Source: a virus. From it: a stretch of DNA of 42,837 nt. The stretch spans positions 1-42,837 of the IMG/VR virus record IMGVR_UViG_3300045988_062157, one strand, 5' to 3'. Below the pieces are notes generated by a model. It ran no database searches. It was given only the letters and a program-made list of their open reading frames with translations, and was not told the origin of the DNA. Numbering within the stretch: the first letter of the stretch is position 1; each line of letters begins with the position of its first letter. Shown here one piece after another: positions 4,067 through 14,227 of the stretch. The translations under genes were made by a program, and so were the position numbers.

Positions 4067-4440
4067 ATTATAAGTTTACGATACGGGGCACGCTGCCGGG
4101 ACTGAACGAACTGATCGAGGCGGAACGCAGAAACCGGTTTATCGGCGCGAAGCTGAAAAAGCAGTATGAAGCGGTCGTTATGCGGGCGGCGCGAAGCCTC
4201 GGGAACGTGGAGTTTGAAGAACCGGTGTACATGGTGTACCACTGGTACGAGAAGGACCGGCGGCGGGATAAGGATAACATTTGCGCGTTTGGTCGCAAGG
4301 TCATTCAGGATGCGCTTGTGAAGGCGCGGTTCCTGCGGAATGACGGATGGAAGAACATCGCGGGGTTTGAAGACAGGTTTTACGTCGATAAGGACAAGCC
4401 GCGCGTTGTGGTGGAGATTTTGGAGGTGACGGAGGAATGA
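4063..4440 (+). CDS. rusA: RusA-like Holliday junction resolvase
   Basis: 125 aa, LPGLNELI..., RRRDKDNICAFGRKVIQDALVKARFLRNDGW pattern typical of the RusA family. GTG start. Confidence 0.6.
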   Translation: MNYKFTIRGTLPGLNELIEAERRNRFIGAKLKKQYEAVVMRAARSLGNVEFEEPVYMVYHWYEKDRRRDKDNICAFGRKVIQDALVKARFLRNDGWKNIAGFEDRFYVDKDKPRVVVEILEVTEE

Positions 4441-7303: not shown

Positions 7304-7883
7304 GAAAGACGGGAAAGTTTACGAAAGCACGGAGGCAATGTTGAATGCAAACTGCAACAGTATTGCAACGTGCATGACAGAATGCGAAATTAGAAAGCGT
7401 TGCCGTGAAGGCCAAAGCTGCGAAGATTACGCCTATGTGAACCCTGCGGAGGTGGCACAGTATCTCGGATTTGAGGTGCTTGAAGATGATAGCCCTACAA
7501 TTGCCATGATTATCGCAAAGCACACCGAGAACGACACGCCCACCATTGCCGAGACAGTTGAGGAAAACGGCGAGGACGAAAAGCGCAGGCTGACCCGTGC
7601 GGACATCCTGCACGCGGCGGAGAAGTGCGTATGCGGACAGCGTGAGCAGGACTACGGCACACCGGAGGATAACTTCAAAGCGATTGCGGAGCTGTGGGAG
7701 TCGTATCTTAATAAAGCCTGCACAAGGGGCGTGAACGTGCGCGTAGAGGCAAAGGACGTTGCTGTAATGATGGCGCTGCTCAAGATTGCACGCATTGCAG
7801 CAGGCGGCGGAAAGGCTGACAGTTGGATTGATCTTGCAGGCTATGCGGCTTGCGGGGCGGAATGTGAGGGAGTAACGGAATGA
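7293..7883 (+). CDS. hypothetical protein with DUF6378-like C-terminal domain
   Basis: C-terminal QDYGTPEDNFKAIAELW...ALLKIARIAAGGGKADSWIDLAGYAA matches the remembered DUF6378 pattern. The N-terminus is Cys-rich. Confidence 0.5.
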   Translation: MRFKKDGKVYESTEAMLNANCNSIATCMTECEIRKRCREGQSCEDYAYVNPAEVAQYLGFEVLEDDSPTIAMIIAKHTENDTPTIAETVEENGEDEKRRLTRADILHAAEKCVCGQREQDYGTPEDNFKAIAELWESYLNKACTRGVNVRVEAKDVAVMMALLKIARIAAGGGKADSWIDLAGYAACGAECEGVTE

Positions 7884-10251: not shown

Positions 10252-10405
10252 AAATCTGAAGCTGTGGGCGTGCCACTACGCATTAGTTAACCGGCATTCA
10301 AGGGGATGCGAGCCGGGCGAAGGGTGCACAAAAAGAACAGAAAGCTACCGCAGACGGATAGCTTTCAAACACGACGGAAGCACCGAGGAGATTACAAGTC
10401 GATGA
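10157..10405 (+). CDS. Cys-rich putative zinc-binding protein
   Basis: CRNCAYWRTLGN...WACHYALVNRHSRGCEPGEGC. ATGA coupling to the downstream late-regulator gene. Confidence 0.5.
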   Translation: MSSDTARKSGVTYYGDTPCRNCAYWRTLGNYKNLKLWACHYALVNRHSRGCEPGEGCTKRTESYRRRIAFKHDGSTEEITSR

Positions 10406-10815
10406 CAGCGAAAGAATGGCTGATGCGCGGGCGCGCACTGGAAAAGACGATTACAGCCTTGCAGGAGGCACGGAAACGCGCCTATGCACGGGCAACGGGC
10501 GCAACCGCGCCGGTAAGGGATACGCCGGGCGGAAAAGGGAGCACGGGGAACAAGGCGGACCCCTACATCGAACTGGGCGAGAAGATTGCAGCGAAGGAAA
10601 ACGAGCTTGCGGAGATATACGGCGAGATCGTGCGCGTGCTGGGCGAAATGCGGGATAACGAACTGCAAACGCTCCTGCTTGAACGTTACGTGAACGGCGC
10701 AACATGGGCACAGGCGGCGCGGCGGCTGCATTACAGCGAGGCGCACGTGAAAGGCTACATGCATAGAATGGCACTGAATGCTGTGGATAAGTTAATACCC
10801 CACAATACGCGATAA
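10402..10815 (+). CDS. late-gene transcriptional activator, sigma-70 region-4-like (ArpU/RinA/DUF1492 type)
   Basis: 137 aa. C-terminal ELQTLLLERYVNGATWAQAARRLHYSEAHVKGYMHRMALNAV is a region-4-like HTH. Its position just upstream of the packaging genes is typical. Confidence 0.55.
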   Translation: MTAKEWLMRGRALEKTITALQEARKRAYARATGATAPVRDTPGGKGSTGNKADPYIELGEKIAAKENELAEIYGEIVRVLGEMRDNELQTLLLERYVNGATWAQAARRLHYSEAHVKGYMHRMALNAVDKLIPHNTR

Positions 10816-10817
10816 CG

Positions 10818-10826
10818 TGATATACT
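10818..10826 (+). promoter_or_regulatory. candidate extended -10 element (TGaTATACT) in front of the structured region
   Basis: Sequence tgatatact read directly. No convincing -35, so this is weak. Confidence 0.25.
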
Positions 10827-11583
10827 GATATCGTGGAAGAGCTCCAAGGGAGCAAAACCACGGCATTCACGGGTTGATAAATTCCGGTTATGTCCTCCTA
10901 ATTCTCTCCCCCGCTTCGGCGGGGGACACGCTCCAAAGGCTGCACGAGGCCGGAGGGGCTCACACTTCCTTTCGCCCAAGGCATTCCCTAATGAGACGGG
11001 AAACCGTCTCAGCCTGTCCGCCGCGTCTGCACGAGGGCGCGCGGGCTCTTTGACCCTCGGGAATACAGTTCAAGGAAACGCGGCAGAGATGCCGCACATG
11101 CTCCAAAGCCTGCATGAGGGCGGCGGGGCAAAAAAGACAGCCGAACGGCTGCCCATAATCTGACAGCCCGGAAAGACGGGCGCGGGCGCAGCTTACGGAA
11201 CGGCGCGCCGACACCTATTCTGACGGCTCGGAAAGACGAGTACTGTTTGCGAACTTCGCCGGACTGCCCGGCAGGCCTTGCGCAGGGCCAAAGCGTCAGT
11301 ACACAGCGCAGCAGCACGTGTATCAGGGAGTAATTCCCTGCAACGGGGTAGCGCCCTGCGGTGAAAGTCCGCCGGTTTGCAGGCCGATAACTGCGCGCGA
11401 GGGGTTCAAAATTCGAACTTCCTATTTTGTAGCAGCCCCTGAGCGCAAGCCGGGAAACCGTCCGTAAAGCCGGACGCAAGGCGCAGCGATACGCGCACAT
11501 ACCGCGAAAGCGGTATACATGCAGCCGAAAGTTGATACGCGGTGCAATTCCGTGTGGCTGCACCTCCAATTGTCATAAGTAAA

Positions 11584-11619
11584 AGCACCTCCCCGGGATG
11601 GCTTCGGGTAGGTGCTTTT
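11584..11619. terminator. bidirectional intrinsic terminator
   Basis: Stem gcacct(c)cccg / cggg(t)aggtgc, flanked by AAAA upstream and TTTT downstream. Lies between the convergent ncRNA candidate and the minus-strand operon. Confidence 0.7.
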
Positions 11620-11647
11620 GCTTAGATGTTGCTTAGATGTTGCTTAG
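11620..11647. repeat. 11-bp tandem repeat gcttagatgtt x2.5
   Basis: Read directly. Overlaps the stop codon of the minus-strand mini-gene. Confidence 0.8.
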
Positions 11648-11805
11648 CGGTTATCATAAGCGCATAGAGCCTCACACAGCTCGCGCGTCGGGCACTGGGA
11701 GCAATCGCACTCCGATATGATAACGTTTTCGCACAGTGCGCGAGGATCGGCCATAAAAACGGCCTCGGCTGCTCGGTAGTCCTCAGGGGTAATGATGTTA
11801 TACAT
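11644..11805 (-). CDS. Cys-rich mini-protein (53 aa)
   Basis: Translation MYNIITPEDYRAAEAVFMADPRALCENVIISECDCSQCPTRELCEALCAYDNR. GGAGG 8 nt upstream. Follows the 88-aa gene after 3 nt. Confidence 0.55.
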   Translation of the reverse strand: MYNIITPEDYRAAEAVFMADPRALCENVIISECDCSQCPTRELCEALCAYDNR

Positions 11806-11808
11806 GGG

Positions 11809-12075
11809 TTACGCCTCCAGCCGGTAGGTGATCGCGCTGTTAAGCAGTGCGAAAGTGATGCACTCGTAAAACTCGTCGCGGGCGATTCCCTCCGGCGTGC
11901 CGGTGCCCTGCTCGATCACATGGGCAACAGTGGCGACAGCCTCAGCGGTCGGCTCGTGGGAAGATACCCAGTCGAGCATATGTCCGTACTCGTCGCACGT
12001 CATGGACGTGCAGAAGTCGTTTTTGATACATACCTTGCGGACGCTGTACGCGCTCCAGTTTGCCTTGATGGTCAT
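11809..12075 (-). CDS. hypothetical protein (88 aa)
   Basis: Track ORF. Codon usage and spacing are consistent with a three-gene minus-strand operon. Confidence 0.6.
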   Translation of the reverse strand: MTIKANWSAYSVRKVCIKNDFCTSMTCDEYGHMLDWVSSHEPTAEAVATVAHVIEQGTGTPEGIARDEFYECITFALLNSAITYRLEA

Positions 12076-12126
12076 TTTATATCTTTCTTTCTGCGGGGTT
12101 ATACCGCCCCGCCCGGTGTAGGTGGC

Positions 12127-12672
12127 TCAGTCAATAGCGCAGTAGGTAAGGGCATCATAGCCCATATCAGCAAGCGCCTTGGTCATGGCCTCGGCTGCGG
12201 TCTCGCGCTTGTACGCCTGACCGGCGATGCGGAAGCGGATGACCCAGCGGCGGCCAAAGCTCTTCCACTCAAAGCAGCCGCATCCGGCCTCCTTGCAAGC
12301 CTGCTTGACCTTGGCGGACTGCCAGCGCGGGAGCGAGATTGATGGCGCGTCGAAATTACAGGTGCCGCCGTCATCAACCTGTGCAGCTGCGGCTTTGCCG
12401 ATCTCGTACACCTTGCGCAGATCGTCGCGGAGCTTGGCATACTTGCCGGTAAGCGGCTTCGGCGCTTCGGGCTTTTTGTCTGCGGGATAAGCTGCAAGGA
12501 TGACCTCAAAGTCGCGGAGTGCGTCCGCCTCGGTGCTTGCCGTGCGGTAGGTGATCTCCTGGCCGTCGGGATACATGAGCATAGTTTCGTAACGGTTCGC
12601 GGCAAGCTCGCAGGTGTCGAGGATGACGCGGCGGCCGTTGCGGGTGTACTCGGTGCGTTTGATGGTGCTCAT
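12127..12672 (-). CDS. hypothetical protein (181 aa)
   Basis: GGAGG precedes the ATG at 12672 (internal Met of track ORF 12127..12687). No family recognised. Confidence 0.6.
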   Translation of the reverse strand: MSTIKRTEYTRNGRRVILDTCELAANRYETMLMYPDGQEITYRTASTEADALRDFEVILAAYPADKKPEAPKPLTGKYAKLRDDLRKVYEIGKAAAAQVDDGGTCNFDAPSISLPRWQSAKVKQACKEAGCGCFEWKSFGRRWVIRFRIAGQAYKRETAAEAMTKALADMGYDALTYCAID

Positions 12673-12737
12673 GATTTGTACCTCCATTTTGTTTTCGGTG
12701 TTTGGTGTTTTCCTTTGTTGTGATTATAGTATATATC

Positions 12738-13115: not shown

Positions 13116-13499
13116 ATGGACAAGCTGACCGCAAAACAGCGGGCATGGATTGATTACTATAAGCAGGGCAAGACAGCAGCAGAGGCGGCACGGCTTGCCG
13201 GTTACAGGGGCAATAACTCCGACGCGATAGGTTCGCAGAACTTGGTTAAACTTGGTAAATACGTTGCAGACCGCGACGAGCTGTTAGATCGTGCCCGTGT
13301 GGCGGATATGGCGGAGATTAACGAGTTTTGGAGCGATATCATGAGGGATAACACGGCGGACATAAAGGACCGTCTGAAAGCCTCTGAGCTGCGCGCACGG
13401 AGTATCGGCGCGTTTATCGAGCGTCGGGAAATCGTAGGAGCGCAGACGATCACGGTTAAGCTGCTCGATGATGACGAGGAAATGAAAGATACAGAGTAA
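13116..13499 (+). CDS. terS: terminase small subunit-like protein (P27-type)
   Basis: MDKLTAKQRAWIDYYKQGKTAAEAARLAGY... HTH N-terminus and ...DRLKASELRARS, typical of P27-family small terminases. Confidence 0.6.
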   Translation: MDKLTAKQRAWIDYYKQGKTAAEAARLAGYRGNNSDAIGSQNLVKLGKYVADRDELLDRARVADMAEINEFWSDIMRDNTADIKDRLKASELRARSIGAFIERREIVGAQTITVKLLDDDEEMKDTE

Positions 13500-13915: not shown

Positions 13916-14227
13916 ATGGGACGGAAAAAGAAAGTGATTGACCTCAAAGCGGTGCAAGAGCTTGCAAGTGAGGGCAATACACAAGAAGAAATTGCAAAGG
14001 CTTTGGACTTTTCACGATCGACGTTCAGTAACCGCGACGATGTAACCGAAGCATACTATAAGGGCGTAGCAGAAATGAAGCTCAGCTTGCGCCATTGGCA
14101 GTTTAACGCTGCTCGTGGCGGTAACATCCAGATGCTTATCTGGTTGGGCAAGCAGTACCTCGGACAGCGTGACACAGTAGAGAAAAAAATCGAAAGCGAA
14201 GGCGTGAAGGTGATTATCGATGTCTGA
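13916..14227 (+). CDS. HTH DNA-packaging protein (second small-terminase-like gene)
   Basis: NTQEEIAKALDFSRSTF HTH and IQMLIWLGKQYLGQRD motif. Overlaps the terL start by 8 nt. Confidence 0.6.
   Translation: MGRKKKVIDLKAVQELASEGNTQEEIAKALDFSRSTFSNRDDVTEAYYKGVAEMKLSLRHWQFNAARGGNIQMLIWLGKQYLGQRDTVEKKIESEGVKVIIDV

Follow-up and report, generated by a model that had tools for sequence, protein, structure and literature searches.

Between the stop codon of a regulator gene, at position 10815, and a strong terminator about 0.8 kilobases (kb) downstream, the virus record IMGVR_UViG_3300045988_062157 contains a stretch of DNA that is dense in hairpins and holds no conserved open reading frame (ORF), raising the question of whether this stretch specifies an RNA and, if so, of what kind. 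The whole record, 42,837 nucleotides (nt) long and hereafter called the window, represents a siphovirus-like genome of human-gut origin. An initial annotation, made from the letters alone, had proposed a giant structured phage RNA read from the plus strand, a proposal that our analysis upholds on the basis of a promoter sequence and a terminator that are conserved, compensatory changes in four parts of the molecule and 70 distinct homologues that all keep one syntenic position. We consider it very probable that the element is an independent structured RNA gene.

A predicted transcription unit bounded by a promoter and a terminator

Beyond the stop codon of the regulator ORF at 10815, positions 10816-11624 are free of conserved ORFs, in agreement with the gene-free stretch of the initial annotation, and all twelve hairpins that it had listed were recovered to within 1 nt. 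The bidirectional intrinsic terminator that it had described at the distal end (11576-11624, both strands) was likewise confirmed: its arms, at 11576-11595 and 11605-11624, form a 20-nt inverted repeat with 90% complementarity, and it is shared with convergent minus-strand ORFs ending at 11644. At the proximal end, a putative extended -10 promoter is read from the sequence at 10818-10826 of the plus strand (TG at 10818-19, one base, and TATACT at 10821-26), with no match to a -35 element; a simple promoter scan was silent at this site because it needs a -35 hexamer. The motif TGnTAnnnT lies exactly 5 nt ahead of the base of the first helix in 105/105 homologous loci, and this invariant spacing would place the start of the RNA at the foot of the 5' hairpin. 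TGnTATACT at 10818-10826 would be a functional promoter and the plus strand would be transcribed from 10832 to ∼11620, with a predicted RNA length of ∼790 nt from the base of the 5' hairpin to the terminator. Both the promoter consensus and the intrinsic terminator, as expected of an independent bacterial transcription unit, are conserved in the homologues and, in a distant subfamily, similarity between phages ends right after the equivalent terminator. Its placement by the initial annotation, at the head of the late region, needs refining, since the element forms a separate unit, with its own predicted promoter, that ends at a terminator common to the three convergent ORFs. We also observed three tandem copies of TTGCTTAGATG (the third being TTGCTTAGCGG) at 11618-11650, overlapping the 3' arm of the terminator and heading towards the minus-strand ORF stop at 11644.

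Homologues occupy a fixed position in gut phages

When 810 nt of the element were compared by BLAST with 50,697 phage records, nothing matched, and no isolate phage record was found in this way. IMG/VR contained 23 close relatives that are 92-98% identical, and a second subfamily was recovered through the repeat pattern. A third subfamily is represented by L406, whose regulator shows 59% identity, and L024 (regulator identity 41%) carries a 270-nt miniature version of the RNA, while L025, with a regulator only 34% identical, is without it. After de-duplication, 70 distinct RNAs of 270-1157 nt remained, all in gut-phage contigs. In every case the RNA lies directly 3' of a regulator homologue, with regulator identities of 41-99%.

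The region does not code for protein

The region might encode a protein, either through a 186-amino-acid (aa) minus-strand ORF at 11009-11569 or through short plus-strand ORFs, but to this explanation we assign next to no likelihood. The 186-aa ORF does exist; however, it is not conserved in frame, strand or length, and the longest stop-free stretch varies in all three respects among the 23 close relatives. Indels among these relatives were mostly incompatible with a reading frame (111 were not multiples of three, against 14 that were), variable columns were distributed 57/63/66 over the three codon positions of the 186-aa ORF, that is, without codon periodicity, and an independent gene caller left 930 nt uncalled at the element. 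Codon-periodic substitution and a conserved ORF, which the initial annotation had named as evidence that would go against it, were both looked for in the homologues and neither was found, so that its judgement of no plausible coding stands.

Compensatory changes maintain helices in four parts of the RNA

The RNA is built from a 5' hairpin, from units made of two successive hairpins (Hx and Hc), from copies of a third hairpin (the U-hairpin) and from a 3' domain. Hx stands for a variable hairpin, rich in GC, whose loop is often GNRA or UUCG. Hc consists of P1, of 5-6 base pairs (bp), an A-rich internal loop, P2, of 4 bp with an invariant closing U·G, and the loop GCAYGA. The U-hairpin is a 24-nt element, CUGAC-A-stem-GGAAAGAC-stem-A, with a GAAAGA hexaloop. 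As expected of a structured RNA, compensatory changes keep the helices of the 5' hairpin, Hc, the GGAAAGAC hairpin and the 3' domain.

In the 38 distinct Hc units, which are paralogues and are counted, like all covariation counts given here, as sequences and not as independent events, 95% of the cells were paired, compared to 33-59% when the partners were slid. The covariation score was 0.446, against at most 0.10 with slid partners, and none of 500 shuffles reached the observed value; at pair 17-28 six pair types are in use. The U-hairpin stem covaries both inside the RNA family and across 106 unrelated viral instances among the matches listed. In the latter set of unique copies, the two unconstrained stem positions were paired in 105/106, compared to ∼14% expected by chance; A·C was not among the pairs in use, which were GC, CG, UA, AU and U·G. 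In the 3' segment, RNAalifold found four hairpins unaided, with double compensatory changes in 7 of the 14 pairs, and the 3-bp stem of one GNRA hairpin occurs in five different forms.

The two-tier 5'-terminal hairpin (10832-10862, plus strand; CGUGG-AAGA-GCUCC-AAG-GGAGC-AAAA-CCACG), at whose base the predicted transcript starts, shows the same behaviour. When folded sequence by sequence, seven variants from four subfamilies adopt one minimum free energy (MFE) architecture despite differing helices, the fold recurring from five sets of helix sequences. Outer helices in relatives read CGUGAU/AUCACG, UGUGAU/AUCACG or UUGAG/CUCAA, and inner helices GCCCC/GGGGC, GCCC/GGGC or GCUC/GAGC.

Which strand is functional could not be deduced from folding energies. 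The MFE of the plus strand was -354 kcal/mol (z = -4.9 relative to dinucleotide shuffles) and the minus strand gave z = -5.5; both are about 5 standard deviations better than shuffles and therefore thermodynamics does not choose between them. The covarying helices do, through their G·U asymmetry. At three pairs of the Hc unit, G·U or U·G occurs in 15, 8 and 38 of the 38 rows, and the 106 copies of the GGAAAGAC hairpin contain 7 U·G against 0 A·C. Since G·U and U·G are frequent and A·C, expected of the opposite strand, is absent, we conclude that the functional strand is the plus strand, as initially proposed.

These results also bear on the notion that the element works at the DNA level, as a replication origin, a set of iterons, a packaging site or a single-strand DNA hairpin site. 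Direct repeats with spacings of 83-87 and 60 nt, the location ∼1.5 kb upstream of the small terminase gene and the three TTGCTTAGATG repeats at 11618-11650 would all suit such a site. However, covarying stems with fixed loops, which accept G·U but not A·C, are unlike double-stranded DNA sites; GNRA and UUCG loops are present on one strand only; and the promoter and terminator sequences bracket the element exactly. We hold a DNA-level role to be highly improbable.

The RNA is a modular array with variable copy number

The initial annotation had described an ornate architecture. What we found is a modular array of hairpins with variable copy number, whereas no evidence was obtained for a single pseudoknotted fold, long-range pairing not having been tested. 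From 5' to 3', the 5' hairpin is followed by CCUCC (10894-10898, plus strand), an anti-Shine-Dalgarno-like sequence located 10-14 nt ahead of the first Hx hairpin. It is unpaired in the MFE fold and is kept in 96 of the 97 loci scored, in all four subfamilies, and it may pair with Shine-Dalgarno sequences; no extended complementary target (mRNA) for the CCUCC region was found within the window. In L024 (∼2507-2517) the equivalent sequence reads CCUCCUUUCUA, which we take to be the 3' end of Firmicute 16S rRNA.

Three Hx-Hc units come next, all on the plus strand. In unit 1, Hx (10908-10925, CCCCCGC-UUCG-GCGGGGG) is joined by the linker ACAC to Hc (10930-10959), with P1 GCUCC/GGGGC, internal loop AAA/GGA, P2 GGCU/GGCC and loop GCACGA. 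Unit 2 is made of Hx at 10993-11010 (GAGACGG-GAAA-CCGUCUC), whose stem changes in relatives from A-U through G·U to G-C, and Hc at 11016-11046, also with loop GCACGA. Unit 3 has Hx at 11080-11095 (GCGGCA-GAGA-UGCCGC) and Hc at 11100-11129, with loop GCAUGA; many close relatives carry one extra unit inserted directly after it. The ACAYGC flank ahead of each Hc can pair with the GCRYG of the loop, excluding P1 and P2 (for example, 11096-11101 with 11112-11116). This alternative helix was 87% paired (alignment columns 4-8 with 20-24), mostly via invariant bases, and may be a switch or a product of chance.

Downstream of unit 3 on the same strand, a hairpin at 11138-11151 (CAGCC-GAAC-GGCUG, with GA in front) looks by eye like a degenerate relative of the GGAAAGAC hairpin. 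Two U-hairpins follow, copy 1 at 11160-11182 (CUGAC-A-GCCC-GGAAAGAC-GGGC-G) and copy 2 at 11220-11242 (CUGAC-G-GCUC-GGAAAGAC-GAGU-A). Directly after the last U-hairpin, all subfamilies show (C)A(U)CUGUUU (window 11243-11252 and equivalents in L160, L147 and L175), which resembles what we presume to be the T7 class II pause/termination signal, ATCTGTT, probably by coincidence. The 3' domain (11245-11575, plus strand) consists of GNRA-capped helices colinear with those of distant subfamilies and includes the hairpins CGG-GAAA-CCG (11451-11460), GUCCG-UAAAGC-CGGAC (11462-11477), GCGC-AGCGAUAC-GCGC (11484-11499) and AUACCGC-GAAA-GCGGUAU (11499-11516).

Across the 70 distinct RNAs, the number of Hc units ranged from 1 to 5 and that of U-hairpins from 0 to 3. 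Units measure 83-108 nt, and direct repeats are spaced by 83-87 and 60 nt. Phages with 96-98% identity in the rest of their sequence differ by the gain or loss of entire units, and in some the central part has been swapped.

Both hairpin modules occur singly in unrelated phages

Single Hx-Hc units with a GCAUGA loop were found in short intergenic spacers of unrelated, larger gut phages (L206, ∼7470-7540; L159, ∼4280-4350), and the unit is therefore an autonomous element. The distribution of the U-hairpin is much wider. Its pattern, CTGACNGCNNGGAAAGACNNGC, was present in at least 119 loci of viral contigs (L026-L144) and in at least 120 loci of bacterial contigs taken as one genome per species (L262-L381). 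The genome matches listed belong to Alpha-, Beta- and Gammaproteobacteria, Bacteroidota, Clostridia, Actinomycetota, Planctomycetes, Spirochaetes, Myxococcota and Oligoflexia. Judging from these matches, most bacterial phyla have phages or prophages in which the nucleotide sequence of the U-hairpin is conserved. Outside its 24 nt, conservation is limited to an A before and an A after the stem, and a 26-nt stretch of the copy 1 region is identical in an enterobacterial phage locus (L085). The hairpin is also present, unannotated, in isolates such as mEp390, Medea1, Pokken and ESP2949-1.

Among 200 U-hairpin copies in the matches listed, 20 had a transfer RNA (tRNA) gene on the same strand within 130 nt and all of these started 1-8 nt after the hairpin, with none starting at 9-130 nt. 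Other copies lie 19-44 nt ahead of start codons, directly ahead of an RprA-like small-RNA segment, 15-20 nt ahead of terminators (in enterobacterial loci) or in tandem.

Several known elements were considered for the U-hairpin and discarded. Theta ribozymes, which are hepatitis delta virus (HDV)-like, lie downstream of tRNAs and cleave at the tRNA 3' end, whereas the U-hairpin lies upstream, and the base after its stem is A and not the catalytic C. Hammerhead, twister and pistol ribozymes were rejected by eye, the spacing or the core bases being unfit, and so were sigma-70, sigma-54 and extracytoplasmic function (ECF) promoters; a -35/-10 reading would place the start site inside the tRNA. Likenesses to the cobalamin B12 box, the RNase P CR-I and the 915 region of 16S rRNA are leads and not tests.

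Other ORF-free regions were observed around these hairpins. Enterobacterial phages of lambdoid type have a ∼900-nt ORF-free region after a cI-like gene and a PL-like promoter (L085, 7115-8035), with further examples in L058, L100, L094, L082, L083 and mEp390 (L382, 2040-2780). These regions hold 3-9 GGAAAGAC motifs, an RprA-like segment scoring 49.7 bits, under the gathering score of 70, and a 165-nt block conserved in 123 phage records; in several genes of these phages the ribosome-binding site is GAGGAAAGACCAAUG. In Pseudomonas phage Medea1, a variant of the U-hairpin (GUGAC…) shares a 770-nt ORF-free region (L383, 1690-2459) with a tRNA-Met and with a 17-mer, ACAUACCGCGAAAGCGG, identical to window 11497-11513. 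Rfam models matched nothing but the tRNA in this region.

Comparison with known phage and bacterial RNAs

The initial annotation had left open whether the RNA belonged to GOLLD, to ROOL or to a new class. A cmscan search with all 4227 families of Rfam 15 produced nothing at the gathering score in the whole window, and nothing relevant at E ≤ 10 with permissive filters in the 1.2 kb from 10600 to 11800, where the best sub-threshold match was a 25-bit Plastid-ycf2 on the minus strand, taken as chance. Nothing relevant was found either in a 101-nt hairpin region, seven other loci and the modules of distant homologues, and the tmRNA, drum and STAXI models, included among the 4227, gave no match. 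Membership of GOLLD, ROOL, HEARO, OLE, raiA, the introns, RNase P or the riboswitches, as these are catalogued, can therefore be dismissed, and the RNA matches no family in the catalogue.

GOLLD and ROOL are phage and prophage RNAs of at least 0.6-0.8 kb, highly structured and without known protein partner or function, that assemble into homo-oligomeric nanocages (PMC12286853). Large phage non-coding RNAs of unknown function are thus a known kind (PMC12286853), and the present RNA resembles GOLLD (RF01998) and ROOL (RF03087) in being phage-encoded, large and highly structured. Similar size, phage origin and GC-rich hairpins would also fit a divergent GOLLD, ROOL or other catalogued large RNA lying under detection, to which we give hardly any credence, as there was no match even at E ≤ 10, nor any in the modules of distant homologues, and no tRNA lies adjacent to the element in the window. 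Furthermore, the present RNA is made of tandem hairpin units that vary in copy number and is linked to a regulator gene and not to tRNAs, no tRNA match being found in the entire 42.8-kb window. Its repeat-unit architecture is presumably unlike that of GOLLD and ROOL. Loci of the latter two often lie near tRNA islands, and the U-hairpin module is tied elsewhere to phage tRNA genes.

With the protein-sponge RNAs CsrB/CsrC and RsmX/Y/Z, the RNA shares many copies of a short conserved hairpin loop in an untranslated RNA with its own predicted promoter and terminator, as well as a copy number that varies between relatives. Bacteroidota and Actinomycetota are not known to have CsrA, yet the U-hairpin occurs there. 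Tandem RNA repeats that change quickly in number are also a feature of ToxI and of phage 'pseudo-ToxI'; phage PhiTE escapes ToxIN by expanding a ToxI-type repeat. However, ToxI repeats are 34-45 nt long and near-identical, whereas the present units are 83-108 nt long and diverged, with repeats in the window 77-87% identical over 22-34 nt and spaced by 60-170 nt. No toxin gene follows the RNA on the same strand, where no plus-strand ORF follows and the next genes are convergent. An array of clustered regularly interspaced short palindromic repeats (CRISPR) was discarded in view of the diverged repeats, the covarying stems and the irregular spacing.

Lambda nut (boxB) and HK022 put sites are likewise short phage hairpins with purine-rich, GNRA-like loops, which act on the transcription machinery, and this likeness leads to a further explanation, namely that the element is a cis-acting leader, 3' untranslated region or antitermination element of the flanking operons. 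It follows the regulator gene; in enterobacterial relatives the U-hairpin lies ∼45 nt downstream of a PL-like promoter, in the position where nutL or putL would be; and the GCCCG-GAAAGA-CGGGC hairpin resembles lambda boxB, which we take to be GCCCU-GAAAA-AGGGC. In the window, however, the element has its own predicted promoter and a strong terminator. Genes past this terminator are on the opposite strand and therefore nothing lies downstream to be antiterminated, and the downstream content differs between relatives. In addition, the U-hairpin differs from nut and put in being multi-copy, in occurring in many phyla, in abutting tRNAs, in lying inside a terminated RNA in the window and in consisting of a hexaloop with a conserved CUGAC flank and no boxA. 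HK022 put itself was discarded, no word match being found in the text of the put paper. We regard a cis-acting role as very unlikely.

Limited text searches for GGAAAGAC, for phage hairpins upstream of tRNAs and for new GOLLD/ROOL-like classes turned up nothing beyond primers and papers on other subjects. Neither this family nor its repeat-unit architecture nor the U-hairpin was found in Rfam 15 or in these searches.

Genomic context

The gene preceding the RNA (10402-10815, plus strand; 137 aa counted from MTAKEW) encodes a sigma-70 region-4-like transcriptional regulator that matches Pfam Sigma70_r4_2 with E = 0.002, under the family cut-off, and PHROG 36, 'transcriptional regulator', with 3e-15. 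In a distant subfamily (L253 ∼2040-2060, L233, L175 and L160), the conserved N-terminus of the regulator ORF (…RR*WHTTTKEWL) is not accompanied by a nearby ATG, GTG or TTG, and an in-frame TGA is situated directly upstream, which could reflect an unusual start, read-through or recoding. Past the RNA, the next gene-like ORFs are three convergent ones on the minus strand at 11644-12687 (53, 88 and 186 aa), without Pfam match, the largest of which (186 aa) corresponds to PHROG 23592, a group without assigned function; the genes downstream of the terminator vary between relatives. The small terminase gene starts at 13116 and the large one at 14220, followed by portal and capsid genes. The nearest records to terL are uncultured faecal phages (81% identity), and the nearest isolate is Blautia phage Montmirail (56%).

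A proposed scaffold or decoy, or possibly a precursor of small RNAs

Each of the coding, DNA-element, GOLLD/ROOL and cis-regulatory explanations was rejected because a specific result contradicts it. As for what the RNA does, two hexaloop hairpins present in many copies, in an untranslated RNA that has a hairpin cap at both ends and in which copy number changes fast, suggest the design of a multivalent scaffold or decoy. In such a model, host RNA polymerase would transcribe a ∼790-nt RNA from the extended -10 promoter overlapping the end of the regulator gene, starting at the base of the stable 5' hairpin and ending at the strong terminator. The RNA is an assembly of modules, namely the 5' clamp hairpin, the exposed CCUCC, the Hx-Hc units (GCAYGA), the GAAAGA U-hairpins and the 3' domain, and the many copies of two conserved hairpins would bind a factor in trans and thereby titrate or assemble it, repeat number setting the capacity. 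In other phage transcripts, this factor would recognise single copies of these hairpins located ahead of tRNAs, small RNAs and ribosome-binding sites. Since single copies of both are found at the beginnings of phage RNAs, the partner likely acts 5' of phage tRNAs, small RNAs and mRNAs. The boundaries, the non-coding nature, the helices and the modularity are established, whereas transcription, action in trans and the nature of the partner are inferred, and a trans-acting multivalent hairpin array, be it scaffold or decoy, is a reading that we would as readily believe as doubt.

The main rival is that the RNA is a precursor of several small RNAs, in which Hc and the U-hairpins would act as punctuation or processing signals within a 790-nt gene-less 'operon'. 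Cuts would release Hx-capped fragments of ∼85-105 nt and a 3'-domain RNA, some of which would base-pair with targets, for example via CCUCC. Consistent with this, the U-hairpin elsewhere marks the 5' edge of functional RNAs (tRNAs and the RprA-like segment, and it also precedes terminators and start codons), single Hx-Hc units sit between cistrons, and units of 83-108 nt have the size of small RNAs. Against it, neither hairpin has a known nuclease or cleavage site, the 5' clamp and the terminator form a conserved set whose order does not change, and the colinear 3' domain speaks for a function of the whole molecule. We consider a precursor rather unlikely, although the sequence data do not separate it from the intact-RNA model.

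Several observations must be set against an independent RNA that acts as a multivalent array. A processed precursor would look identical at the sequence level, and the transcript and its stability are themselves deduced from sequence. Each subfamily is rather uniform, so that a few lineages, together with the paralogous units, account for much of the covariation. The loops, GCAYGA and GAAAGA, are not the ANGGAN of CsrB and Rsm RNAs, whose models gave no Rfam match. Finally, among the 215 U-hairpin loci listed, no protein family was common to the surroundings within 3.5 kb, the only enrichment being that of over-represented enterobacterial lambdoid genes, and the sigma-like regulator gene is absent near single modules.

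Given how widely the U-hairpin is conserved, either all bacteria should share its partner or the hairpin should have an activity of its own; the partner must be common to most bacteria, or else the hairpin must act alone. Either case would bear on how phages process and protect untranslated transcripts. A broader proposal, which we put forward tentatively and think somewhat improbable, is that the RNA is the founding example of an undescribed class, made of arrays of two autonomous, horizontally spread hairpin modules. The U-hairpin would be independent of the host, acting by itself or docking on conserved machinery (RNase P, RNA polymerase or the ribosome), and in phages of most bacterial phyla would mark the 5' boundaries of tRNAs, small RNAs and mRNAs, while the array would serve as a decoy or platform for the same partner. 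To the long-standing puzzle of large structured phage RNAs such as GOLLD and ROOL, the present RNA would add a third kind, an unrelated family from phages of human-gut Clostridia. The RNA family has a simple architecture that can be dissected, with natural copy-number variants as ready-made dosage mutants, and the U-hairpin would make the unexplained association of large phage RNAs with tRNA islands accessible to testing.

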